Part shown: positions 2,566 to 41,062 of the stretch, piece after piece
Layout of the letters: every line of letters begins with the position of its first letter
Numbering within the stretch: position 1 is the stretch's first letter
Source of the DNA: Candidatus Doudnabacteria bacterium RIFCSPHIGHO2_01_FULL_46_24
GTDB lineage: Bacteria > Patescibacteriota > Doudnabacteria > UBA920 > O2-02-FULL-48-8
DNA: 64,000 bases
Reading direction: 5' to 3'
NCBI GenBank assembly: GCA_001777575.1
Contig: MFEL01000008.1
Coordinates: forward strand, 42,634 to 106,633
Made by a program: the position numbers and the translations under genes
Notes under the pieces: generated by a model
Told to the model about the DNA's origin: nothing
What the model saw: only the letters and a program-made list of their open reading frames with translations
The model's database searches: none

Positions 2566-3482
2566 TTTTGTTCTCCTTCCGCTGCCGCGGGAATTTGCGC
2601 GCAGGGTGTTGACTTAAAACAATAATAAACCCATTTTTCGCTTCTCATGTCAACGTAAGCCAATCTGGCGCGGTCCTTGGCTGGAATTTGTTTTGACAAT
2701 AACATGCTTAACCCGGATAGTTGGGAATATACCGAGCGGTTGACGTCAAAAAAAGCCGACCACTCTTCCGCGGAAATAAATTGCACTTCATTGGCATATT
2801 TGCTGGTCAATTTGATCGAGTTGACCCTTGTCGCTATCTTGGATGGCCAAGATTTGTGCATGGATAAAATAAATGCAGTCAATTTGGTGTTCGATAAATA
2901 CTCTCCCACCACAACATCTTCTTCAGTTTGCAAAGCCACTTCGGGAAGCCCGTGATTTTCAACGGTTTCCCGGATTACAGTGCCGCTTTCGTCAACCAAG
3001 AATTTCCTATCCTTCACAGCCAGCACAAAACCCGGCACGCGCTCCTTGATTTCGATTTCGATCCGGCGAAACCCGATTCGGTCGGATTTAACCACTTCTT
3101 GTATTTCCGGCAGCGCATTGGTCAACATCTTGTTGACCCTGCCGCGGGTTAAGAGCAGGTAATGGTTCTTTTTGACAAGCAGCAAGCGATTGTTGCCGAT
3201 GGCTTCCAGAGCCTGCTGGATCTGTCCCTGTGTGACCTGACTATTGCCTGCCACCGCCACCTCCGTGATGACAAACCGACTGGAAACGACAAGATAGTAA
3301 ACTATGATGAGCGCCAAAACAATAAGCAACCATTTCAAAAATCTGAAGCGGAAAAGAAAATAGCGAACCGGCGCCAAACTCCGCTTGTAGTTTTGAGCCT
3401 GCCTCAGCCGCGATCGGAATTCCCGTCCCCCGAACCGACGGTGCGGCTCCAGTTTCCTTCTATGCTTCGAAAAAATTTTCAT
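2562..3482 (-). CDS. ftsQ: Cell division protein FtsQ/DivIB-like (single TM + POTRA-like domain)
   Basis: N-terminal basic region, one TM helix, then a periplasmic domain. It lies in the ddl/mur cluster. Overlaps pyrH by 4 nt. Confidence 0.5.
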   Translation of the reverse strand: MKIFSKHRRKLEPHRRFGGREFRSRLRQAQNYKRSLAPVRYFLFRFRFLKWLLIVLALIIVYYLVVSSRFVITEVAVAGNSQVTQGQIQQALEAIGNNRLLLVKKNHYLLLTRGRVNKMLTNALPEIQEVVKSDRIGFRRIEIEIKERVPGFVLAVKDRKFLVDESGTVIRETVENHGLPEVALQTEEDVVVGEYLSNTKLTAFILSMHKSWPSKIATRVNSIKLTSKYANEVQFISAEEWSAFFDVNRSVYSQLSGLSMLLSKQIPAKDRARLAYVDMRSEKWVYYCFKSTPCAQIPAAAEGEQK

Positions 3483-4534
3483 ATAATCATGCTTTTGAGG
3501 TCTTTGGGGATTTTGCTATGAATCTTGGGCTGTTTAGCCACGGTTATCATATCTTCTATTCTAACACCAAATTTGCCCGGCAGATAAATTCCAGGCTCAA
3601 CAGTCACCACGGAATTGACTTTCAGGACATCCTCAGAAGCGGGTGAAAAGTTGGGTTGTTCGTGAATTTCCAAACCTACGCCATGGCCGGTATTGTGGGT
3701 GAAATATTTGCCAAAACCGGCTTGGGTGATAACTTTGCGCGCGGTTTGATCAACCAACGAAGCTTTGTTGCCTATCTGGACTTTCGCGATGGCCTTAAGT
3801 TGGGAGTGTAAAACTGTTTCGTAAACTTTGGCTTGAAAACCTGTTGGCCGGCCAAGAAACAGGGTTCGTGTGAAGTCTGAGTGGTAATTTCCGACTTTGA
3901 AGCCGAAATCCAAAAGCAAAAAATTATTTCTGCCGACTCTGGTCTTGCTGGGAAAATGATGCGGGCTGGCTGCGTTGGAACCAAAAGCTACTATGGGATC
4001 GAAAGCCAAGCCTTCTGCGTCCAACTCTGTCCCATATTTCAAAATCAGTCCTGCAATTTTTGCTTCGGTTAACTCATATTTATTTATATATGCGCGTATA
4101 TACTTTTTTATTTGCTCAAAAGTCTTATCAATAATTGCACTGCCTCGCTCAATCGCCTTAAGCTGTGCTTTGGTCTTTACTGCTCGCACGTTCTCGATGA
4201 CATTAGCAGTTGATTTCCAACTAACCCCTTTCCCAATTTTCTTGAGGCTGGCAAACTCCCGCAAACTGATCCGATCCTCAATCGCGATTTTTTTATACTT
4301 AGCAAGAACCAAGTCTTTGCTAAGTCTTTCTAATTTTCTCACCGGCATGCCTGACTCTTTTTTTGCGCGCAAAAAATACCTCCCGTCAACATACAAAACC
4401 GCCTCGCGCTTGCTTATTACTAAATACCCGGCTGACCCCGTAAATCCCGAAAGATACTGCCGATTGATTTTGGTCAACACCAAAAAAGCATCCAGTTTTT
4501 TTTCAACCAGATAATCATGGATTTGGTTTGTCAT
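3479..4534 (-). CDS. Xaa-Pro aminopeptidase / M24B family metallopeptidase
   Basis: C-terminal HNTGHGVGLEIHE and GVRIEDM motifs of the M24 pita-bread fold. Has the N-terminal creatinase-like domain. Confidence 0.8.
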   Translation of the reverse strand: MTNQIHDYLVEKKLDAFLVLTKINRQYLSGFTGSAGYLVISKREAVLYVDGRYFLRAKKESGMPVRKLERLSKDLVLAKYKKIAIEDRISLREFASLKKIGKGVSWKSTANVIENVRAVKTKAQLKAIERGSAIIDKTFEQIKKYIRAYINKYELTEAKIAGLILKYGTELDAEGLAFDPIVAFGSNAASPHHFPSKTRVGRNNFLLLDFGFKVGNYHSDFTRTLFLGRPTGFQAKVYETVLHSQLKAIAKVQIGNKASLVDQTARKVITQAGFGKYFTHNTGHGVGLEIHEQPNFSPASEDVLKVNSVVTVEPGIYLPGKFGVRIEDMITVAKQPKIHSKIPKDLKSMII

Positions 4535-27752: not shown

Positions 27753-28175
27753 CTAAGTGCTTTCATCCAAAGCCTCATTGACTAGCTTATCCGCCAGTTT
27801 ATTTTTTTCCCGCGGAACATGCTTATATTCCACGCTCAGAAACTTGTTCGAAAGCTTAAAAACCTCGGCAGCCAAAAGTTTCAGTTCTTGCTCTTTTACT
27901 TTGTACTTGCCGGTCAGCTGGCGCACCACCAACTCTGAATCCAAAAAACAGGTTAATTCTTTGGCTTCTAAACTTTCAGCTTCTTTGAGGCCTCGGATCA
28001 AAGCCTGATATTCAGCCTGGTTATTTGTGGCATTGCCAATATGCTCGCCTACTTGGCGCAAGGGCTTCTCGCCAACGCCATAAATCACCACCCCAATCGC
28101 CGCCGGCCCGGGATTCCCCCGCGCCCCGCCATCCGTGTAGATTGTAATCTTATTTGGCATAATTTTTAGTGTCAA
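27753..28175 (-). CDS. rnhA: Ribonuclease HI
   Basis: ITIYTDGGARGNPGPAAIG N-terminus and the DEDD catalytic residues. Confidence 0.8.
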   Translation of the reverse strand: MTLKIMPNKITIYTDGGARGNPGPAAIGVVIYGVGEKPLRQVGEHIGNATNNQAEYQALIRGLKEAESLEAKELTCFLDSELVVRQLTGKYKVKEQELKLLAAEVFKLSNKFLSVEYKHVPREKNKLADKLVNEALDEST

Positions 28176-28408
28176 AGATGCCCTTTGACACTAAATCTTG
28201 GTTCAACGAGCCGGAACGCCCGATTTTTTGCAATTTTCTGATTGAATTTACAGGTCTGGCCATAAATTACGTAACAAATTATATAATTATCTCTATAATT
28301 ATAGTTTAGCATATTTGTGCTATAATCTCTCTGCCCAAAGCCTTGCTGCCCCACAGGCCCATGTGTCTGCCGGCGCGTTTTTTTTATTCCACTAAAAACA
28401 GAGTCTTT

Positions 28409-28443: not shown

Positions 28444-28671
28444 ATGACACAAGCAGTAATTACGAAGATCAAATCAAACAGCATTTTACTGCCCAAAACA
28501 TGGAAGGGCAGCAAGGTTCTTTTACGCATCACTGACAACACTGCGACTATTACCAAGGTACCCAAGACAAGCAATATTTTTTCACTTCAAGAAATTAAAG
28601 CTTGGCGACGATTGGGCAAAAAGGTCGCCAAATCAACCCTAAATAAAGCCTTGGCAAAAGCTCGTGAATGA
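28444..28671 (+). CDS. Putative antitoxin (AbrB/MazE-like swapped-hairpin DNA-binding protein)
   Basis: 75 aa. Its stop overlaps the start of the PIN gene by 4 nt. Confidence 0.5.
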   Translation: MTQAVITKIKSNSILLPKTWKGSKVLLRITDNTATITKVPKTSNIFSLQEIKAWRRLGKKVAKSTLNKALAKARE

Positions 28672-29090
28672 AAATCTTTGCCGATACTAATGTTATAGTT
28701 TCCATGCTGCTCTGGGGAAAGTCCTTAGAGCAGCTTTTTGTCCTAATCAACGCTCGCAAGATAACTTTAGGCTTTTCGCCGGCGACAATCGAGGAATTGT
28801 TCCGTGTTGTCAATTATCCGCAAATAGCCAAACAAGCCCTTAAGCAGAATGTTGATGCCGAAGTCCTTGCCGATAAATTAGTTGCCGCTTCTGAAATTTG
28901 TTATCCAAGCAAAACATTTGACATTGTCGCTGATGATCCAAGCGATAATAAAATACTCGAAACAGCTCTGGAAGCCAAAGCCGAGTATATAATTTCTGGG
29001 GACAGGCATTTGCTGCAATTGAAAACTTTCGAAAAAATCCCAATTGTTACACCAGCAAAATTTCTAAAGCTTAATATCAACAATTTTTAA
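28668..29090 (+). CDS. PIN-domain toxin (VapC-like)
   Basis: MKIFADTNVI…DPSDNKILETAL…ISGDRHLL carries the conserved acidic residues of a PIN nuclease. Confidence 0.75.
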   Translation: MKIFADTNVIVSMLLWGKSLEQLFVLINARKITLGFSPATIEELFRVVNYPQIAKQALKQNVDAEVLADKLVAASEICYPSKTFDIVADDPSDNKILETALEAKAEYIISGDRHLLQLKTFEKIPIVTPAKFLKLNINNF

Positions 29091-32903: not shown

Positions 32904-34157
32904 TTAGAACTTAGAACTTAATTCTTCTTCTATCGCCATCAACCGGTTGTATTTTGCCACTCTTTCTCCTCTCGCCACCGATCCCGACATTATATAATCC
33001 GCGCCAATGCCGACAGCAAGATCAGCGATGAAATCATCGTTGGTTTCGCCACTTCTATGCTTTGCCACGACTTTGTATCCGTGTTTCTGAGCCAAAGCGA
33101 CAGTCTCAAGAGTTTCAGTAATCGTACCAACCTGGTTTGGTTTTATGATTATCGCGTTGGCAATGCCAAGATCAATTCCTTTTTGCAACCGCGATTTTTG
33201 GGTTGTGAACAAATCATCGCCGATCAAAAGCATTTTCTTGCCCAAGCGATCCTGCATCATCTGCCAGTCTTCAAAATCTTCTTCCATTAACCCGTCTTCA
33301 ATCGCCACAATCGGATATTGCTCGGCCCATTGGTTATACAGCGACACCAAGCGCTCAGCGGACAAGGAGGTATGATCCGCCTTCAATACATATTCCTTGT
33401 GGTTGACGTCATAAAATTCACTGGCCGCGGCATCAATGGCCAGGCCGACACTTTTGTATCCAGTTTCCTTAACCGCCTTCATAATCATATCGAACGCCTG
33501 GCCATTTCCCTCCCAGTTCGGCGCAAATCCGCCCTCAAACCCCAAATCCGTGTCCAACCGATGAAGTTTGAGGACTTTTCGAAGAGATTGGAAAATATCC
33601 GCGCCCATTTCAATTGCCTTGGCAACTGAATCCGCTTGCGGGATAACCATGAATTCCTGAATGTCAAGATTGGTGTCTCCATGCAAGCCGCCTTCAATGA
33701 GCAAAATCGAAGGTTGGGGTAATTTCCAGCCCTTTTTATGCTTATGCAAAAATGCTATGTATTTGTAAACTGGAACTTTTTTCGCAGCCGCAGCGGCTTT
33801 GCAAACCGCGCCGGAAACGCCCAAAATCGCATTGGCTCCCAGCCTGGCTTTATTAGGAGTGCCGTCCAGATCAATCAAAGCCTGGTCAATTTTGCCCTGG
33901 GCCAGCACGTCCATGCCGTGCAATTTCTTGGCAATGACATTGTTGACATGATCAACCGCCTGACTTACGCCCTTGCCGCTGAAAGCCGTACCGCCGTCGC
34001 GCAGCTCCAAAGCCTCGTTCTTGCCCGTGGAAATCCCGCCCGGCACGCCAAAAGTCCCGCTGCCCTTGGCGGTTTCCACCGTGGCCTCCACAGTCGGAAT
34101 CCCCCGCGAATCCAAGATCTGACGGGCAAATGTGTTTTTTATCGTAATTTTAGGCAT
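32904..34157 (-). CDS. eno: Enolase
   Basis: ILDSRGIPTVEA N-terminus and the enolase signature. Confidence 0.95.
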   Translation of the reverse strand: MPKITIKNTFARQILDSRGIPTVEATVETAKGSGTFGVPGGISTGKNEALELRDGGTAFSGKGVSQAVDHVNNVIAKKLHGMDVLAQGKIDQALIDLDGTPNKARLGANAILGVSGAVCKAAAAAKKVPVYKYIAFLHKHKKGWKLPQPSILLIEGGLHGDTNLDIQEFMVIPQADSVAKAIEMGADIFQSLRKVLKLHRLDTDLGFEGGFAPNWEGNGQAFDMIMKAVKETGYKSVGLAIDAAASEFYDVNHKEYVLKADHTSLSAERLVSLYNQWAEQYPIVAIEDGLMEEDFEDWQMMQDRLGKKMLLIGDDLFTTQKSRLQKGIDLGIANAIIIKPNQVGTITETLETVALAQKHGYKVVAKHRSGETNDDFIADLAVGIGADYIMSGSVARGERVAKYNRLMAIEEELSSKF

Positions 34158-35379
34158 GATTGGCCTCCAACACCTTAATTGCAGGAAGTTTTTTGCCGCT
34201 TAGGAATTCTAGCATGGCGCCGCCGCCGGTGGAAACATGATCCACGAACTGGGTGACTTTGGCCGAATTCAAAACTTCCAAAGTTTCCCCGCCGCCCGCG
34301 ACGCCATAAGCCGGTCCTTTGGAGCGACCGGCAAAAACCCGCGCCATTGATTCGCTGCCGAATGCATACCGCTTGATCTCGATCATGCCAAAGGGGCCGT
34401 TCCAGACCAATGTCACGGCATTTTTGACATATTCAGAAAACTTTCTAATCGTTTCCGGGCCGATATCCAGAATTATGTCCTCCGGCATGACCTTGCTTAC
34501 AGCCGCATTGTGAGGTGTATCCTCCAAAGAATGAGCAACCACCACATCCACTGGCAGAATTATTTTTTCTTTAAAATTTCGCGTCAGTTCCTTGGCCAAG
34601 GATTCATCGGCGAATTTGGATTTGCCAATTTCATACCCTTTCGCTTTTAGGAAAGTGTTGGCAATGGCTCCACCCAGAAGAATGTGAGAAGCCCCCTTGA
34701 GTAAATTTCTCATACTTTCGACTTTGTCGGAAATTTTTAACCCTCCAATCAAAATCACCATGGGTTTGGTCGGGTTTCTCAAAAGTCTATACAAGGCTTT
34801 GATCTCCCGTTCAAACGCGATCCCGCAATAGGATTTAAGTTTTACCGCCAATCCATAGGTAGAAGCGGACACTCTGTGGCTGACAGAAAACGCCTCGTTG
34901 ACGTAAAGTTCGCCAAACTTGGCCAGGGTTTGGATGAATTCCGGGTCATTTTCTTCTTCTCCGGCATAAAACCTCAGGTTTTCTAAAAACAATATACTCC
35001 CATTCGGTATCGGCAATTTCGAATAGTCGTGCTTAGTGATATCTTCTGTTAAAAAATAAATATGCGGGATGGGATAGTGCGGCAATTCGGAGGAAATTTT
35101 GACTACTTTCATGCCCAAAAATTCGCCCAGTCTCTTTGCTGCAGGCCACAGACTTTTATCAGCCTGCCGGCCTTCCGGCCTGCCCAAATGGGAAATCAGC
35201 GTGACCTTGGCTTGATTCTGAATCAGATATTCGATCGTTCTTAGAGCGTCCTTGATTCTGGTATCATCCGCCGCCTCCCATTCTTCGGTATGGATATTTT
35301 TTTTCAGAGGCACGTCAAACCCGACGCGAACTATCACGCGCCGGCCTTGCACTTTAACAGAAGTAATGCTCTTAATCAT
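34150..35379 (-). CDS. pgk: Phosphoglycerate kinase
   Basis: Full-length PGK similarity. Confidence 0.9.
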   Translation of the reverse strand: MIKSITSVKVQGRRVIVRVGFDVPLKKNIHTEEWEAADDTRIKDALRTIEYLIQNQAKVTLISHLGRPEGRQADKSLWPAAKRLGEFLGMKVVKISSELPHYPIPHIYFLTEDITKHDYSKLPIPNGSILFLENLRFYAGEEENDPEFIQTLAKFGELYVNEAFSVSHRVSASTYGLAVKLKSYCGIAFEREIKALYRLLRNPTKPMVILIGGLKISDKVESMRNLLKGASHILLGGAIANTFLKAKGYEIGKSKFADESLAKELTRNFKEKIILPVDVVVAHSLEDTPHNAAVSKVMPEDIILDIGPETIRKFSEYVKNAVTLVWNGPFGMIEIKRYAFGSESMARVFAGRSKGPAYGVAGGGETLEVLNSAKVTQFVDHVSTGGGAMLEFLSGKKLPAIKVLEANHA

Positions 35380-35479: not shown

Positions 35480-36541
35480 CTATAAGTTCTTGCCAATAAG
35501 TATTGCCTGCTCCACAAACCTGTTTGCATACCCAAACTCATTGTCGTACCACGCCACGACTTTGACCAGGTCGCCGTCCACGACTTGCGTTAGCGACAAA
35601 TCAACAATGGCCGAATGGGGATTGCCGACAATGTCCGACGACACGATCGGATCAGTCGTCACTTGCAAAACTTTTTCCCACATGGGATTTTTGGCCGCTT
35701 CCATAAAAACTTTATTAATTTCATCCACCGTGACCTTGCGCTGCAGAACCGCGGTAAAATCCGAAAGCGAACCGCAAGTGACTGGCACGCGATAAGCCGC
35801 TCCGCCAAACAAGCCTTTAAGCTCAGGGATGACTTCAGTAGCGGCAATGGTTGCTCCGGTTGTAGTCGGGATAATGTTGGCCGAGGCGGCGCGGGCGCGG
35901 CGCAAGTCATTTGATTTGCCGCCAGGCGGCGGACCGTCCACCAAATTCTGTTCCGCGGTATAGGCGTGGATGGTGGACATCATCATTTTTTTGATCCCGA
36001 ATTTGCTATGCAAAATGGCGGCCACCGGCGTGATGCAATTGGTGGTGCAGGAAGCGTTTGAGATAATCTGTTGGTTCTGGTAACCCCTATCATTAACGCC
36101 AATGATGAAAGTTAGCGTAATTCCTTCGTCCTTGGCCGGCGCTGAAATAATTACTTTCTTCGCCCCGGCTTTCAAATGCGCGCTGGCCAATTCCGTAGTC
36201 ACAAATCTGCCGGTGGACTCCAATACCACGTCCACGTCCAAATCTTTCCACGGCAAAAGGCCCGGGTCTTTTTCGGCAAACACCGGAACTTTAATTTCAT
36301 CTGCAATCAGACTTCCGACTGAATACGAAACCGAACTGGCTCGTTCGTGCCTGTCGTCAAAGCTGACCTTTTTTTCATAAACGCCATAAACCGAATCGTA
36401 GCGCAGGAGATGCGCCAAAACTTTCGGCTCCGTCAAATCATTGATAGCCGCGACCTTGAGTTCGGGTTTGGTTAAGGCGATTTTGAAGGCAGAACGCCCT
36501 ATCCGGCCAAAGCCGTTGATTGCAACACGTATCGGACTCAT
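35480..36541 (-). CDS. gap: Glyceraldehyde-3-phosphate dehydrogenase
   Basis: INGFGRIGR NAD motif. Catalytic SCTTNC. Confidence 0.9.
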   Translation of the reverse strand: MSPIRVAINGFGRIGRSAFKIALTKPELKVAAINDLTEPKVLAHLLRYDSVYGVYEKKVSFDDRHERASSVSYSVGSLIADEIKVPVFAEKDPGLLPWKDLDVDVVLESTGRFVTTELASAHLKAGAKKVIISAPAKDEGITLTFIIGVNDRGYQNQQIISNASCTTNCITPVAAILHSKFGIKKMMMSTIHAYTAEQNLVDGPPPGGKSNDLRRARAASANIIPTTTGATIAATEVIPELKGLFGGAAYRVPVTCGSLSDFTAVLQRKVTVDEINKVFMEAAKNPMWEKVLQVTTDPIVSSDIVGNPHSAIVDLSLTQVVDGDLVKVVAWYDNEFGYANRFVEQAILIGKNL

Positions 36542-36548
36542 TTTGGCT

Positions 36549-36698
36549 TTAGATGAAATTTGTCAAAAATACGGACACAAAAAGCGCCCAGATCAGAAAG
36601 ATGATGTATTCTTTTTCATCGTCGAAGTTGAAATGCTTGAGCAACCAACCTTCCAAATCATATTTCTTATAAAGCCAGTGGTTATTTTGTTTTGCCAT
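36549..36698 (-). CDS. Small ORF (49 aa) with a C-terminal TM helix, between fba and gap
   Basis: AAAGGA 7 nt upstream of the ATG at 36698. Below the ORF-track length threshold. Confidence 0.3.
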   Translation of the reverse strand: MAKQNNHWLYKKYDLEGWLLKHFNFDDEKEYIIFLIWALFVSVFLTNFI

Positions 36699-36771
36699 TT
36701 TTTATCCTTTCTTTGCTCCCGCCATCTTCGATGGGCGGGGTTCGCTCAACACGGCTGAGCGGCGTCCCGAT

Positions 36772-37665
36772 TTAATCGGGGCGGCGACCTTTATTGCTTG
36801 CTTTTAATATTTTAATTTTTTTCTCAGCTTCGTCCTGGAGCGCATCAGTTGCCGGGGCCAAAATTTTCCGAGGGTCATATATGGATAAGTGCTTCTTAAG
36901 ATTTTCGCGAAGTGCCCGATTGAATGCCACCCGCAAATCAGTGTCTATGTTGAATATCGCCACACCAGTTCTGACGGCGAAGCGAATTTGCTGATCCGGC
37001 ACTCCGGATGCGCCATGCAAAACCAACGGGATTTTGACTTTCCTGCGAATCGCTTGAAGGCGTTCAAGATCGATATGTTCCTTGAGCGTCGTTAATACTT
37101 TTTTGGTTTTCGGATTGACTGGAATGCCGTGCATCGAACCAACCGCCACCGCCAAAGTGTCAATCCGTGTTTCAGACACAAATCTTGCGGCTTCATCCGG
37201 ATCAGTCATCAAATCTTTTCCCGACTTGACCTTCTGCCAATCCTCGTTGCCCAAAATCCGACCAAGCTCGGCCTGGACCCAGACACCTCTTTTGTGGGCG
37301 TACGAAACCACGACTCGTGTCAGCTTCACGTTTTCTTTATAAGTCAAATGCGAGGCGTCAATCATCACGCTGCTGTATCCTAAGTTTATCAGTTTTTTAA
37401 TAAGGTTGAAATCATGGCAGTGATCCTGGTGCAGGGCAATCGGGACTCTGGCTTTTCTGGCCTCAATCTTGATTATCGAAACCAGCTCTTCCATGCCGGC
37501 ATATTCCAAAGCCCCAACCGAGGTTTGGATGATCACCGGCGCTTTCTGCTTTTCCGCCGCCCGCACAATCCCCTGTGTCATTTCCAAATCCTGGGTATTG
37601 AAAGCCGGGATGGCATATTTGCCAATTATTCTTTTGTTTACGATTTTTCCAATGTGTACGAGCAT
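36772..37665 (-). CDS. fba: Class II fructose-bisphosphate aldolase
   Basis: Class II ketose-bisphosphate aldolase metal-binding His residues (HLDH, HGASG). Confidence 0.85.
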   Translation of the reverse strand: MLVHIGKIVNKRIIGKYAIPAFNTQDLEMTQGIVRAAEKQKAPVIIQTSVGALEYAGMEELVSIIKIEARKARVPIALHQDHCHDFNLIKKLINLGYSSVMIDASHLTYKENVKLTRVVVSYAHKRGVWVQAELGRILGNEDWQKVKSGKDLMTDPDEAARFVSETRIDTLAVAVGSMHGIPVNPKTKKVLTTLKEHIDLERLQAIRRKVKIPLVLHGASGVPDQQIRFAVRTGVAIFNIDTDLRVAFNRALRENLKKHLSIYDPRKILAPATDALQDEAEKKIKILKASNKGRRPD

Positions 37666-37666
37666 A

Positions 37667-38089
37667 TCAGCGATTCGAAATTAACGAATGGACATCCGAA
37701 TGATCCGAAACTACAAAATCCGGATTAAGAACCCTCTTGGGTTTAATAAAAGAGCCTCTGAAATTTACTATCAAACCAAGTTCTAAATTTGCCGCTTTAA
37801 GGTACCTCTGCATTTGGATATAATCTTCTTTGGTTATAAAAGTCTTTGCTTTGAAATCTACGAAAATTTTGCGCTCGACAAAAAAATCTACTTTGTTGCC
37901 TCTCGGCGAATTTTTGTTCAGTTTACTAATTTCGAACTCTCGCTCATATTCCCACTTTTCTTCTTTAAGTAACTCTTCAAATCTATCGCCATACTGCTTT
38001 TCTCTACAGAAACGTCCGAGCTCTTTCGCTACTCTAAAGCATAAACCACTAATCTTATAAGATAATTTTGCTTCAACTATTTTTGGCAT
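37667..38089 (-). CDS. GxxExxY family protein
   Basis: LSYKISGLCFRVAKELG…YGDRFEELL…ELGLIVNFRG matches the GxxExxY signature. Confidence 0.8.
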   Translation of the reverse strand: MPKIVEAKLSYKISGLCFRVAKELGRFCREKQYGDRFEELLKEEKWEYEREFEISKLNKNSPRGNKVDFFVERKIFVDFKAKTFITKEDYIQMQRYLKAANLELGLIVNFRGSFIKPKRVLNPDFVVSDHSDVHSLISNR

Positions 38090-38171
38090 ATTCGGATGCG
38101 CGCTTTCGTAGTGCGCCTTTCGGATACTATTCGTGGCATTCGAATGTCCAATTCGTGGCTTCGTATCGCTG

Positions 38172-38381
38172 TCAAAACTTGGCTCCCGCCTTCAGCACAT
38201 CAAATATGCTCGGCAACTCCGTGGCCTTGCCTTTCTGCTTGCAGATGGCGTAAACCAGATGCCACTCGCATTCCAGATTTTTTTCGTTGGCAATGGCCTT
38301 GGTCCCGCGCCAATACAGAAATGCCAGGGCAAACAGGACTAACAGAATCAATTTTGATCTCATGCGTTTTTTGATATACAT
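38172..38381 (-). CDS. Small membrane protein (69 aa; one TM helix plus ~40-aa soluble tail), second gene of the AbrB-like operon
   Basis: ATG at 38381 is 2 nt after the stop of the upstream 59-aa ORF. AAAGGAG lies upstream. Confidence 0.4.
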   Translation of the reverse strand: MYIKKRMRSKLILLVLFALAFLYWRGTKAIANEKNLECEWHLVYAICKQKGKATELPSIFDVLKAGAKF

Positions 38382-38383
38382 AA

Positions 38384-38563
38384 TTATTTTCTCCTTTTTG
38401 TTTTTGCATCCCGGATGACAATCGCGCCCGGGATTTTTTTGACCAGCAGCCGCTGCCGCTCGCGCCACTTAAGCTGCCGCAGCATTTCCGCGGGCAGCAA
38501 CACTCCCAAAGAACTTCTGCCAATCTTAGTTAGCTTGCGAATATTATTTATCGGCCTGGCCAT
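38384..38563 (-). CDS. AbrB/MazE/SpoVT-family swapped-hairpin protein (59 aa; antitoxin-like or transcriptional regulator). Missing from the ORF track because it is under 60 aa.
   Basis: Manual translation gives MARPINNIRKLTKIGRSSLGVLLPAEMLRQLKWRERQRLLVKKIPGAIVIRDAKTKRRK. The TKIG-S-LGV-LP…G-I-I segment is the classic SpoVT/AbrB fold signature. Confidence 0.55.
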   Translation of the reverse strand: MARPINNIRKLTKIGRSSLGVLLPAEMLRQLKWRERQRLLVKKIPGAIVIRDAKTKRRK

Positions 38564-38586
38564 ACGTATACGTAAACCACGTGGTT
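38564..38586 (-). promoter_or_regulatory. Two perfect palindromes (acgtatacgt, aaccacgtggtt) abutting the start codon of the AbrB-like gene
   Basis: A 10-bp and a 12-bp perfect palindrome within 25 nt upstream of the ATG at 38563. Confidence 0.45.
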
Positions 38587-38592
38587 TAATAC

Positions 38593-39408
38593 TTACCTGA
38601 CGAACATAAAAGTGGAAATAATTTGGTCAAAAACTCTAGCATACTCATCCTGCTGCTCTTGCGTCAAATCGCCTCGGATAGTCATAGATATTAGCATAAC
38701 TCCGGTTGTTTTCTCAATAAATAAATATTCCATAGCCTTGTTTGCGGCGAATCCAGAAACCGCCTCGATCTCTCCGCGGCATCGCAGCGCCTTCGCTCCG
38801 CTGATTGTCAAGGACTTGGGATTGCTGCAATAAGACAGCGAGTATTGCGTCATATTTGTCCCCACGTCTACAGGTCCAAACGGAATCTTTAGCCAGGCGT
38901 AATAATCTTTCAATTCTCCGGCATACTTTAGTGTATCGAATCCGGATTCTTTTGTGCTTAGAACAAGATATTTATCTTTACTGCCGTATTCATCAGTCCT
39001 GTCCACCCAATCGCTGGGGTATTCGAATCTGAACCTGAAATCATAAAACGGGCTAAGATAGGTCTGCCAGTTCGCAGCTTCGCCTGCTCCGACCGAAGCG
39101 TCGGAGTCAAGCTGATTTGTGTCTTCAAACCAAGCGGCCGGGCTCCATCCTGGAGGCAAACAGGAATTATAAAACTTTTTAGTCTCGCCATCATTATTTA
39201 CTGCCAAAATTTCTTTTCTTGAACAATCGTTCCCAAACGTCCAACCATATTGCCAATAAAAGACGCCAGCGACAATGCCGGCAAAAACCAGCCCCAAAAA
39301 CACGTAGCCTAAAACCATGTGGCGGCTAAGCCAATTCTTATTTGGCGGCAAGGTCGGCACTGGTTGGTTGCTTATATTTTTCTGTGACACTCCCTGTTGA
39401 TTTTCCAT
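38593..39408 (-). CDS. Hypothetical secreted/membrane-anchored protein (271 aa)
   Basis: Single N-terminal TM helix. Promoter-operator copy 1 lies directly upstream. Confidence 0.5.
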   Translation of the reverse strand: MENQQGVSQKNISNQPVPTLPPNKNWLSRHMVLGYVFLGLVFAGIVAGVFYWQYGWTFGNDCSRKEILAVNNDGETKKFYNSCLPPGWSPAAWFEDTNQLDSDASVGAGEAANWQTYLSPFYDFRFRFEYPSDWVDRTDEYGSKDKYLVLSTKESGFDTLKYAGELKDYYAWLKIPFGPVDVGTNMTQYSLSYCSNPKSLTISGAKALRCRGEIEAVSGFAANKAMEYLFIEKTTGVMLISMTIRGDLTQEQQDEYARVFDQIISTFMFVR

Positions 39409-39420
39409 ACTTCCGTTCTA

Positions 39421-39444
39421 CATTCATACACGACTGTATGAATG
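39421..39444 (-). promoter_or_regulatory. Operator copy 1: palindrome cattcataca-cgac-tgtatgaatg just downstream of a TATAAT -10 box
   Basis: A 32-bp segment (39420-39451) is identical to 39956-39987. The minus strand reads TATAAT-ACATTCATACAGTCGTGTATGAATG. Confidence 0.6.
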
Positions 39445-39453
39445 TATTATAAA

Positions 39454-39945
39454 TTATAGCTGTAAATCTCTGCTTGCTGAACGCTGCTTAAGTTTCTTTG
39501 TGATAAGACGACTAACTTCCGGAATGCCCTCGGTGACCAAATCCGCCAAAAACGTTTCAGCCGGCATTTTTCTCCGAACTCGCCTTTCCAGGATCGTCTG
39601 TCTCTCCTCGCGTTTTCTCTGGAATTTATTTTCCAAATCAACCAATTTCTGATGAACCTTCTTTAATCCTTCGCCCCGGGTCATCAGCGTATTATTAACG
39701 GTTGTGATTGTTCTGGCGGTAACTTTCAGGGCATCCATGATCTCTTCGTATGTCTGACCATCGATGAGGCGCCTAGCGATTTCTAACCGCTTAGCAAACA
39801 TCTTATATTCTGTGTGTGTAAATAAATCCTTAAACAGCAAACGAACATCCTCCTTGGAATCCATTAAAGTAAAGGCTGACCATAAATTGTTCACATAATG
39901 GCCGAAGTGCTGCGGGTCTAAATGTAATCTTGATAGTTTTGTCAT
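39454..39945 (-). CDS. TrpR-like (YerC/YecD family) helix-turn-helix regulator
   Basis: ARRLIDGQTYEEIMDALKVTARTITTVNN matches the Trp-repressor-like YerC/YecD HTH. Confidence 0.6.
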   Translation of the reverse strand: MTKLSRLHLDPQHFGHYVNNLWSAFTLMDSKEDVRLLFKDLFTHTEYKMFAKRLEIARRLIDGQTYEEIMDALKVTARTITTVNNTLMTRGEGLKKVHQKLVDLENKFQRKREERQTILERRVRRKMPAETFLADLVTEGIPEVSRLITKKLKQRSASRDLQL

Positions 39946-39956
39946 TTTTTATTTCA

Positions 39957-39980
39957 CATTCATACACGACTGTATGAATG
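39957..39980 (-). promoter_or_regulatory. Operator copy 2 (identical palindrome) overlapping the promoter of the TrpR-like gene
   Basis: The minus strand reads gcgcTATAAT-acattcatacagtcgtgtatgaatg-tgaaataaaaaATG. Confidence 0.6.
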
Positions 39981-39990
39981 TATTATAGCG

Positions 39991-40965
39991 CTAACTATTG
40001 GCTTTTACAATATTGGGAGGAGTATTGCCTTTCAGTGCCGCAATGATATTTTCTGCGGCCACGCGGCTCATGTTGTCGCGGGCTTCGATGGTGGCGGAGG
40101 CGGTGTGCGGCGTGATGACAATATTCTCAAGTTCGGCTAATCCCGGCGTTAATTCCGGTTCATGCTCCCAGACATCTATGCCGGCGGCAAAGATGTCCCC
40201 TTTTTTCAGGGCATCGCGGAGGGCTGCCTCATTCACCACCGGGCCACGGCTGGTGTTGACGAAAATTGCGGTTTTTTTCATCAGCTCAAACTGCGCCGCG
40301 CCAAACATATGGCGCGTAGAATCCAGCAGCGGCACGTGGACCGAAACAAAATCCGAATTTTTCAAAAGTTCTTCCAGCGTGCAAAACTTGGCGCCCAAGT
40401 CTTTTTCAATCTGGTCATTGGGTTTTTGGTCATGATATAAAATTTTCATGCCAAAGCCTTTAGCCGCCCTTTCGGCCAAAGCCGCGCCGATCCGGCCGGT
40501 GCCGACAATTCCAAGAGTTTTACCAAACACATCCTGGCCCAGCAACAAAAACGGCTGCCAGCCGGTATATTTGCCGGCGCGGGAAAACCGGTCTGATTCC
40601 ACGATCCGCCGACCCGCAGCCAGCATCAGGCCAAAGGCATGGTCTGCCACTGAACCGGTCAAGATGTCTGGGGTATTTGTGACCAAAACGTGTCGCGCTG
40701 CCGCATCCTTGATGTTGATGTTGTCGTAGCCGACCGCGTAATTGGCCACGATTTTCAGCTGCGGTCCAATAGTGTCCAAAACAACACCGTCAATTTTATC
40801 CACCAGTTGGGAAAGCAAGGCGTCACAGCCAGCTGCTTCCAGCATCAATTCCTCGCGCGACAGGGGCCGGTCAAGCGGCGAAATTTTTACTTCGTGCCCG
40901 GCTTGCTTAAGCATATCAATCCCCACTTGAGGAATTTTTCGAGTAACAAATATTTTCATAAGCAT
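39991..40965 (-). CDS. D-isomer-specific 2-hydroxyacid dehydrogenase (glycerate/hydroxypyruvate reductase-like)
   Basis: NAD-binding GxGxxG (GIVGTGRIG) and the catalytic R/E/H triad region. Confidence 0.8.
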   Translation of the reverse strand: MLMKIFVTRKIPQVGIDMLKQAGHEVKISPLDRPLSREELMLEAAGCDALLSQLVDKIDGVVLDTIGPQLKIVANYAVGYDNINIKDAAARHVLVTNTPDILTGSVADHAFGLMLAAGRRIVESDRFSRAGKYTGWQPFLLLGQDVFGKTLGIVGTGRIGAALAERAAKGFGMKILYHDQKPNDQIEKDLGAKFCTLEELLKNSDFVSVHVPLLDSTRHMFGAAQFELMKKTAIFVNTSRGPVVNEAALRDALKKGDIFAAGIDVWEHEPELTPGLAELENIVITPHTASATIEARDNMSRVAAENIIAALKGNTPPNIVKANS

Positions 40966-41062
40966 TTGGTCTATCCCCGACTTGATCGGGGATCCACTAC
41001 AGCTATTAATACCATTTGGTTTTAATTATCGAAGTGGATCCCAAATTAAATTTGGGATAGGC

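Follow-up and report, generated by a model that had tools for sequence, protein, structure and literature searches.

We analysed a stretch of 64,000 nucleotides (nt), referred to below as the window, from contig MFEL01000008.1 of the metagenome-assembled genome of Candidatus Doudnabacteria bacterium RIFCSPHIGHO2_01_FULL_46_24, in which two small open reading frames (ORFs) stand in tandem on the minus strand behind a pair of palindromes. The upstream ORF (38384..38563) encodes a protein of 59 amino acids (aa), MARPINNIRKLTKIGRSSLGVLLPAEMLRQLKWRERQRLLVKKIPGAIVIRDAKTKRRK, and is designated here the AbrB-like gene. Its stop codon is TAA (38386-38384), and after two further nucleotides (tt) the ATG of the second ORF follows at position 38381. 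This second ORF (38172..38381), designated pep69, encodes a small membrane or secreted protein of 69 aa. A Shine-Dalgarno sequence for pep69, AAGGAG (38391..38396), lies within the final codons of the AbrB-like gene on the same strand, 9 nt ahead of the pep69 ATG. Both ORFs lie where an earlier reading of the window, the original prediction, had placed them, with the 69-aa ORF starting 2 nt past the stop of its neighbour. That reading took the two for a possible unannotated toxin-antitoxin or regulator-effector pair. The word unannotated is correct only relative to the 60-aa cut-off of the ORF list then in use, and is not correct for NCBI, where the record of this genome lists both as hypothetical proteins (A3H72_01215 for the AbrB-like gene and A3H72_01210 for pep69).

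The gene preceding the AbrB-like gene on the minus strand (38593..39408) encodes an N-terminally anchored, PsbP_2-like membrane protein of 271 aa, and is called mem271 here. The gap of 29 nt from the mem271 stop codon (38593) to the ATG of the AbrB-like gene is filled by two perfect palindromes, the 16-nt TAAACCACGTGGTTTA (38573..38588) and the 12-nt TACGTATACGTA (38563..38574), which we treat as the two halves of a putative operator. They overlap each other by 2 nt, and the shorter one takes in the A of the ATG. Two perfect palindromes abutting this start codon had been noted before, and both turned out to be longer than described. Each of them occurs once in the 64-kb window, and the 16-mer remains unique even when up to three mismatches are allowed.

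The co-directional order of the genes around this site is pfkB, a 2-hydroxyacid dehydrogenase gene, a YerC/TrpR-like gene, mem271, the AbrB-like gene, pep69, a GxxExxY gene, fba, gap and pgk. The two small genes had been supposed to close a TrpR-like regulon operon; they are situated in the middle of a string that runs from pfkB to pgk. Downstream of pep69, all on the minus strand, are the GxxExxY / PD-(D/E)XK_3 gene (37667..38089), which separates pep69 from its conserved downstream partner fba, encoding a class II fructose-bisphosphate aldolase (36772..37665), then gap (35480-36541) and pgk (34150-35379).

Comparison with relatives gave proportions of non-synonymous differences (pN) of 0.12-0.29 against 0.58-0.95 for synonymous differences (pS), which indicates purifying selection on both small genes. 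The ratio of the non-synonymous to the synonymous rate (dN/dS), counted where dS was unsaturated, was about 0.07-0.24 for the two genes and about 0.1 for pep69. The existence of homologues and a pN far below pS indicate that the 59-aa and the 69-aa ORFs are real genes.

Fold and family of the 59-aa protein

The 59-aa protein is very basic, with 18 K/R residues against 3 D/E residues and a net charge of about +15. Its monomer model, computed with AlphaFold2 (AF2) from an alignment of the family, has a predicted local distance difference test score (pLDDT) of 85.5 and shows a beta-beta-alpha-beta-beta topology, in which the strands occupy residues 11-13, 19-21, 39-44 and 47-52 and the helix residues 25-30. 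Residue 52 of 59 is the last of the fold, and the remainder is a seven-residue basic tail, AKTKRRK; the mean pLDDT over the last residue block is 68. When the model was compared with known structures by Foldseek, the top ten matches were MazE, SpoVT, the N-terminal domain of AbrB (AbrB-N) and VapB, with prob values of 0.75-1.0, TM values of 0.6-0.7 (TMq 0.51-0.70) and root mean square deviations (rmsd) of 1.7-2.4 Å. The best structural match was MazE (1ub4_C; TM 0.70, rmsd 1.8 Å). The E-values of these ten matches were only 0.13-0.6, and they are modest because the domain is tiny. In addition, the Pfam family PF04014 (MazE_antitoxin, AbrB/SpoVT domain) was matched at E<=1e-3 by 98 of 118 relatives that are 43-78% identical to the query, with a best value of 4.3e-9. 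The AbrB/MazE/SpoVT signature claimed for this protein agrees with these results, and we are almost certain that the protein has this fold.

The family is large. A profile built from 11 relatives collected at least 864 sequence clusters at E<=1e-3. Among the 120 members listed, the lengths were 54-80 aa, mostly 55-63 aa, and the named sources were Doudnabacteria, Nomurabacteria, Moranbacteria and Paceibacterota; a relative from Saccharibacteria was added by a genome scan. The 59-aa protein is a minimal, stand-alone swapped-hairpin domain belonging to this Patescibacteria-wide family. Below, the comparison loci carrying relatives of the AbrB-like gene or of pep69 are labelled with L-numbers. 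At least two copies of the AbrB-like gene (L037, L040), each with a different private set of repeats, occur together in the genome GCA_001779915.1. Some relatives are named 'AbrB/MazE/SpoVT family DNA-binding domain-containing protein' by NCBI, and several are named MazEF or YhaV-PrlF antitoxin components by JGI. PADLOC gave no match for either peptide or for their neighbours, and PHROGs gave only two weak matches for the 59-aa protein, both to families of unknown function. The NCBIfam matches were all sub-threshold ('doc_partner' at 18 bits against 55.9, and JDVT-CTERM for pep69) and were treated as noise. Literature searches on AbrB/SpoVT proteins in Patescibacteria, or the Candidate Phyla Radiation (CPR), found no description of the 59-aa family in the papers covered.

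The N-terminal domains of AbrB, SpoVT and Abh from Bacillus have the same swapped-hairpin beta-beta-alpha-beta-beta topology, a similar sequence pattern (R-K-x-T/D-x-x-G-R ... hhhP-x-E-h-R-x-L-G-W/I) and the same presumed role as dimeric DNA-binding regulators. However, AbrB (~94 aa) and SpoVT (178 aa) are extended at the C-terminus by multimerisation or GAF domains and have large regulons with degenerate sites, whereas the 59-aa protein is a bare domain with perfect palindromes that, in the window, lie at its own start codon only. The MazE, VapB and PrlF antitoxins provide the best structural match, belong to the same Pfam family, and have a similar layout with palindromes upstream of the gene. 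Unlike them, the 59-aa family has neither an adjacent toxin gene, in about 16 contexts, nor a C-terminal toxin-binding extension, and the genes downstream are housekeeping genes. A third likeness is to Sso7c4 of Sulfolobus and the plasmid or virus proteins C68/C56, which are also stand-alone, of about 55-60 aa, dimeric by fold and equipped with a basic flexible C-terminus, as is the 59-aa protein. This C-terminus has been implicated in DNA binding (PMC3159460, PMC5222340), and in Sso7c4 the disordered basic C-termini are required for DNA bending and compaction (PMC5222340). These proteins are archaeal or come from mobile elements and have been proposed to be chromatin proteins or general repressors, whereas the 59-aa family is bacterial, multi-copy and associated with private repeats. 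The Foldseek matches to this group were weak (2l66 at rank 31, E = 3.7, prob 0.14; 5itm and 5itj at prob 0.35-0.57).

The window also contains a truncated paralogue of the AbrB-like gene on the minus strand (28150..28274 with its palindrome), directly upstream of an RNase H gene (27753-28175) into whose start it runs. The first 19 residues of its 37-aa ORF (28150-28263), MARPVNSIRKLQKIGRSGS, match the family, and the rest is unrelated. It looks like a decayed copy.

pep69, fba and the neighbours of the AbrB-like genes

The pep69 protein has a basic N-terminus followed by a hydrophobic segment of 14-16 residues and then (W/Y)RG. A pair of cysteines, C38 and C47, eight residues apart, is invariant, and the C-terminus is conserved as P-x3-(D/E)-(V/I)-x-K-A-G-x-K-F, which reads DVLKAGxKF here. 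The hydrophobic segment could serve as a signal anchor, or belong to a signal peptide that is cleaved off, with A-I-A before N32. The AF2 model of pep69 is of low confidence (pLDDT 64) and was judged too poor for a fold search; in it the two cysteines are located on neighbouring hairpin strands. The family is narrow: when 1.84 billion representative proteins were searched exhaustively with a profile, 29 clusters were recovered, with lengths of 51-74 aa apart from one borderline match to a 922-aa protein, and pep69 belongs to no Pfam, PADLOC or PHROG family. It is predicted to be a Doudnabacteria-specific small protein, either membrane-anchored or bearing a signal peptide, with a two-Cys hairpin. 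The small membrane toxins Hok, TisB, Fst and GhoT are likewise short and have one hydrophobic segment, but pep69 differs from them in its conserved polar part of about 45 residues, its two invariant cysteines, its fixed synteny with fba and its lack of a conserved antitoxin partner, and none of the results points to its being toxic.

The proteins of the window were mapped onto 20 distinct loci with pep69. The downstream side can be seen in 18 of them, and in every one the first housekeeping gene beyond pep69 is fba. In 13 of the 18, the two genes are joined by an overlap of stop and start codons (TAATG) or are separated by no more than 31 nt. The exceptions have an insertion of some kind, namely the GxxExxY gene in the window and L012, the only two among the loci examined to carry it there, an ORF of 92-98 aa in L007/L008, and non-coding gaps in L005 and L022. 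In Doudnabacteria, pep69 is best regarded as the leader cistron of the fba-gap(-pgk) unit, usually in translational coupling with fba.

On the other hand, the AbrB-like gene lies directly upstream of pep69 in only four of the 20 loci (the window, L012, L005 and L007), and two genes upstream in L043. In the other 15 loci it is not ahead of pep69, and a mem271-family gene, pfkB or some other gene is found there. The spacers between the AbrB-like gene and pep69 measure 66, 84 and 170 nt in L012, L005 and L007, respectively, and contain GC-rich hairpins; because the other paired loci have these longer spacers, the 2-nt coupling in the window is peculiar to this genome. The proposal of a toxin-antitoxin or dedicated regulator-effector pair had been tied to pep69 being kept as a neighbour of AbrB-like genes elsewhere. 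This is not what we found, because the constant neighbour of pep69 is fba and not an AbrB-like gene, and the two proteins very probably do not constitute a toxin-antitoxin pair.

The relatives of the AbrB-like gene are found ahead of many other genes. They lie upstream of pgk (L013, L023), of femAB with an ATGA overlap (L006, L037-39), of tmk with a TAATG overlap (L040), of hpf, encoding a ribosome hibernation factor (L001/2), of murJ or a 462-aa gene (L041/42), and of a DUF2769/glutamate-synthase-like gene (L015, L033-36), and one lies inside a ribosomal-protein operon (L014). Neither PIN, MazF or Doc nor any other toxin family occurs among the neighbours with a Pfam assignment in about 16 independent contexts. 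In the glycolytic cluster of Doudnabacteria, an AbrB-like copy recurs at varying spots, before pep69, pgk or a mem271 paralogue. This recurrence fits a control of the cluster by the AbrB-like protein; it could also be descent with rearrangement, and at least one complete cluster (L029/30) is without such a copy. A gene of the mem271 family, whose products end in STF(K/M)F, precedes the AbrB-like copy in the window, L012 (253-957), L013 (2353-2958), L017 (1968-2972) and L043 (2192-2917), and the next gene after the copy differs among them. The adjacency of mem271 and AbrB-like genes may reflect either a functional pairing or shared ancestry.

Several minor features of these loci were recorded. 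The 82-nt spacer between pep69 and the GxxExxY gene in the window (38090-38171) contains GCCACGAAT twice, on either side of ATTCGAAT, and downstream of the AbrB-like gene of L001 (314-420) CGAAT / ATTCG repeats form an array that is far longer. In L014, which is from Paceibacterota, a block at 2575-4108 follows a gene resembling rplE by eye, has rpsH and rplF downstream of it, and comprises genes for a retropepsin-like aspartyl protease (132 aa), the AbrB-like protein, a 135-aa protein and a type IV pilin-like protein. The match to gap in L030 (4078-5158) is split into two overlapping parts that are read in different frames, likely from a frameshift or an assembly error.

The palindromes as a candidate operator

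A palindrome or repeat was present within about 35 nt of the ATG of the AbrB-like gene in all 15 loci first examined, with its end 0-14 nt from the ATG. The region from -45 to +3 of the ATG was used for an inverted-repeat test, with mononucleotide shuffles and 59 other genes of the window as controls. The longest perfect inverted-repeat arm had a mean of 8.5 nt in the 15 loci, as compared with 4.5 nt in the shuffles and 5.0 nt in the other window genes, and an arm of at least 7 nt was found in 11 of the 15 loci but in 6.5% of the shuffles.

The sequences of the repeats vary by locus, and they are common to closely related proteins encoded in different gene contexts. Pairs of TACGTA are shared by L001, L016 and L043, AACTACGTA by L007 and L023, GAGTTAACTC by L006 and L014, TATCTCTAGAGATA by L005 and L012, and direct repeats of TACTTAC by L015 and L041. 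The TACGTA core recurs upstream of the relatives in L001, L007, L016, L023 and L043, and also upstream of the truncated paralogue in the window, whose own palindrome TTACGTAA (28267-28274) is the sole copy in the window and lies 3 nt upstream of its ATG. Since the shared repeats persist though the synonymous sites between these relatives are saturated, the repeat sites seem to be under selection. The candidate operators appear to track the overall relatedness of the proteins and not the motif of the beta1-beta2 loop. Repeats at the start codon are a conserved feature of the family, and accordingly with the original suggestion the palindromes at the ATG look like an operator of the 59-aa protein. 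Their symmetry would be consistent with a dimeric binder.

Two other ideas about this region were rejected. A recognition code leading from the beta1-beta2 loop (GRSS, GKRS etc.) to the operator sequence held for several pairs only. An RNA hairpin in the 5' untranslated region was not supported as an account of the palindromes, as the folding of the region was no better than that of shuffles (z = -0.37); an Rfam scan of positions 36000-41000 gave three weak matches at chance level, all far below the gathering score. A weak sigma-70-like promoter candidate, TTGACC-16-TATGTT (38603..38630, minus strand, 9/12 match), falls within the 3'-terminal part of the upstream gene and would put the palindromes at about +8 to +33.

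Perfect inverted repeats with 9-14-nt arms also occur at five of the 59 control genes of the window, in each case no further than 45 nt from the start. The AbrB-like copy of L041 is flanked by three direct GGTACTTACC repeats, and two genes upstream of it (948-2204) an ISL3-family transposase is encoded, which is the sole mobile-element gene seen near any family member.

A proposed autoregulator and its alternatives

The explanation that we favour, and consider reasonably probable as a whole, is that the 59-aa protein is a solo AbrB-fold autoregulator of pep69-fba-gap-pgk transcription, which binds its own palindromes and is not an antitoxin. The protein would dimerise, as the fold requires, and the dimer would bind both abutting palindromes (38563-38588). 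The bound dimer would repress or roadblock transcription into its own gene and into pep69, the GxxExxY gene, fba, gap and pgk, and its net role would be that of a negative-feedback regulator of the transcription unit. The AbrB-like gene would have been placed ahead of pep69 in some lineages only. AbrB, SpoVT, MazE and VapB all bind DNA through the same domain. We infer DNA binding and repression by the 59-aa protein because these proteins bind DNA via this fold, and because of the pattern of the repeats in the sequence comparison.

Some of the results weigh against this explanation. The 59-aa protein itself matched PF04014 below the threshold (19.1 bits against a cut-off of 24.7, E = 1.2e-3, residues 13-53), and a profile search of the family against the sequences of the PDB gave chance matches only, to isocitrate dehydrogenase. 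Promoter-like sites around the palindromes were no commoner than in shuffles, and five of the 15 loci were without a sigma-70-like match at the threshold used, the scans being inconsistent between loci. The loop code described above fails at L041, which has the GRSS loop of the window yet TACTTAC repeats, and at the remnant at 28263. Moreover, operators common to close relatives could partly reflect common descent.

Two of the alternatives relate the protein to toxins. A type II-like toxin-antitoxin system, with the 69-aa membrane peptide as toxin and the AbrB-like protein as its antidote and as autoregulator of the pair, might be read from the 2-nt distance between the genes, the Shine-Dalgarno sequence embedded in the first, a fold of the AbrB/MazE type, palindromes at the promoter-proximal end, and the presence of the pair in L012, L005 and L007 as well. 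We consider it highly improbable: pep69 is without an AbrB-like gene in 15 of the 20 distinct loci and always tied to fba, the AbrB-like relatives head many unrelated housekeeping genes, and the other three paired loci have the wide, hairpin-containing spacing. The AbrB-like protein, moreover, has no C-terminal toxin-binding extension, with 7 residues past its last strand, while the PIN-linked partner encoded in the window is 75 aa, and pep69 is under strong purifying selection and fixed in a syntenic glycolytic cluster, unlike mobile toxin-antitoxin cassettes. It is also unlikely, though less so, that the 59-aa protein is an orphan antitoxin, that is, a leftover or 'anti-addiction' protein of the MazE/VapB type whose toxin was lost or is encoded elsewhere. 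The PF04014 matches of the family, the antitoxin names given by JGI to several relatives, and a PIN-toxin pair in the same window (28444-29090) point in this direction. Such automatic names, however, copy the name of the Pfam family and contain no test of function. The relatives at 54-80 aa, among the 120 listed, are the DNA-binding domain alone, no toxin gene was seen next to them in about 16 independent contexts, at least two paralogues with distinct private repeats coexist in one genome (L037, L040), and purifying selection is strong.

The other two alternatives leave the toxins aside. The 59-aa protein could have a nucleoid-associated or architectural role like that of Sso7c4, in which a very small, basic dimer of the AbrB fold would bend and bridge DNA largely irrespective of its sequence; the stand-alone form of the protein, its net charge, the lower pLDDT of its basic C-terminal tail, and the presence of Sso7c4 and 'histone-like' entries among the fold matches agree with this. 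The match to Sso7c4 is weak, however, as described above, the presence or absence of the gene among close relatives is unlike that of a core chromatin protein, and the locus-specific palindromes at each ATG, which co-vary with the protein subfamily, argue for specific local binding, so that we regard an architectural role as rather unlikely. The unit of palindrome and 59-aa ORF, with or without the hairpin, might also be a selfish or mobile mini-cassette that moves upstream of housekeeping genes and whose position is accidental. The same syntenic junction may contain the gene or lack it (the distance from the mem gene to pep69 is 10 nt in L003, and the window has about 210 extra nt), a truncated copy lies upstream of RNase H, the position within the Doudnabacteria glycolytic cluster varies, and many copies form a compact unit that closes with a GC hairpin on its 3' side. 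By eye, though, no terminal repeats, target duplications or shared flanks were seen between copies, and no transposase or integrase is associated with them, save the ISL3 gene near L041; we judge the mini-cassette improbable, at about the level of the orphan antitoxin. The architectural and mini-cassette readings can coexist with local autoregulation, and a mini-cassette would be compatible with a regulatory function.

Returning to the autoregulator, the finding of an atypical toxin-antitoxin system does not stand, and the point about annotation remains. The label 'MazE antitoxin' on Patescibacteria proteins of 55-65 aa is probably misleading, since the family, judged from the comparison of loci, appears to behave like solo DNA-binding regulators with private operators ahead of core metabolic and cell-envelope genes. 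More tentatively, and with less than even confidence, we suggest that these proteins form an undescribed large class of minimal regulators in Patescibacteria (CPR). They would consist of a bare AbrB fold, occur several per genome at the head of or inside housekeeping operons, and act on a private operator at their own start as a cis-encoded negative-feedback 'governor'. One of them would control the Doudnabacteria glycolytic cluster, and pep69 would be expressed together with glycolysis as a new small component, located in the membrane or secreted. If this is true, the governed operons span glycolysis, dTMP synthesis, peptidoglycan cross-bridge synthesis, the lipid II flippase and ribosome hibernation. 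The role of a glycolytic governor would parallel that of CggR of Bacillus. Patescibacteria have tiny genomes, and their regulation is poorly understood. With at least 864 clusters and cis-sites that can be recognised, the family would offer a tractable way into the regulation of these largely uncultured organisms, and the small Cys-hairpin protein coupled to fba is a second, narrower curiosity.

The toxin-antitoxin-like pair present elsewhere in the window is encoded on the plus strand. It comprises a 75-aa ORF (28444-28671) beginning MTQAVITKIKSNSILLPKTW, for which no Pfam match was obtained, and a 140-aa PIN protein (28668-29090; PIN_3, E = 8.9e-18), and the two overlap by 4 nt. The pair is divergent from the truncated AbrB-like remnant and is separated from it by 180 nt.

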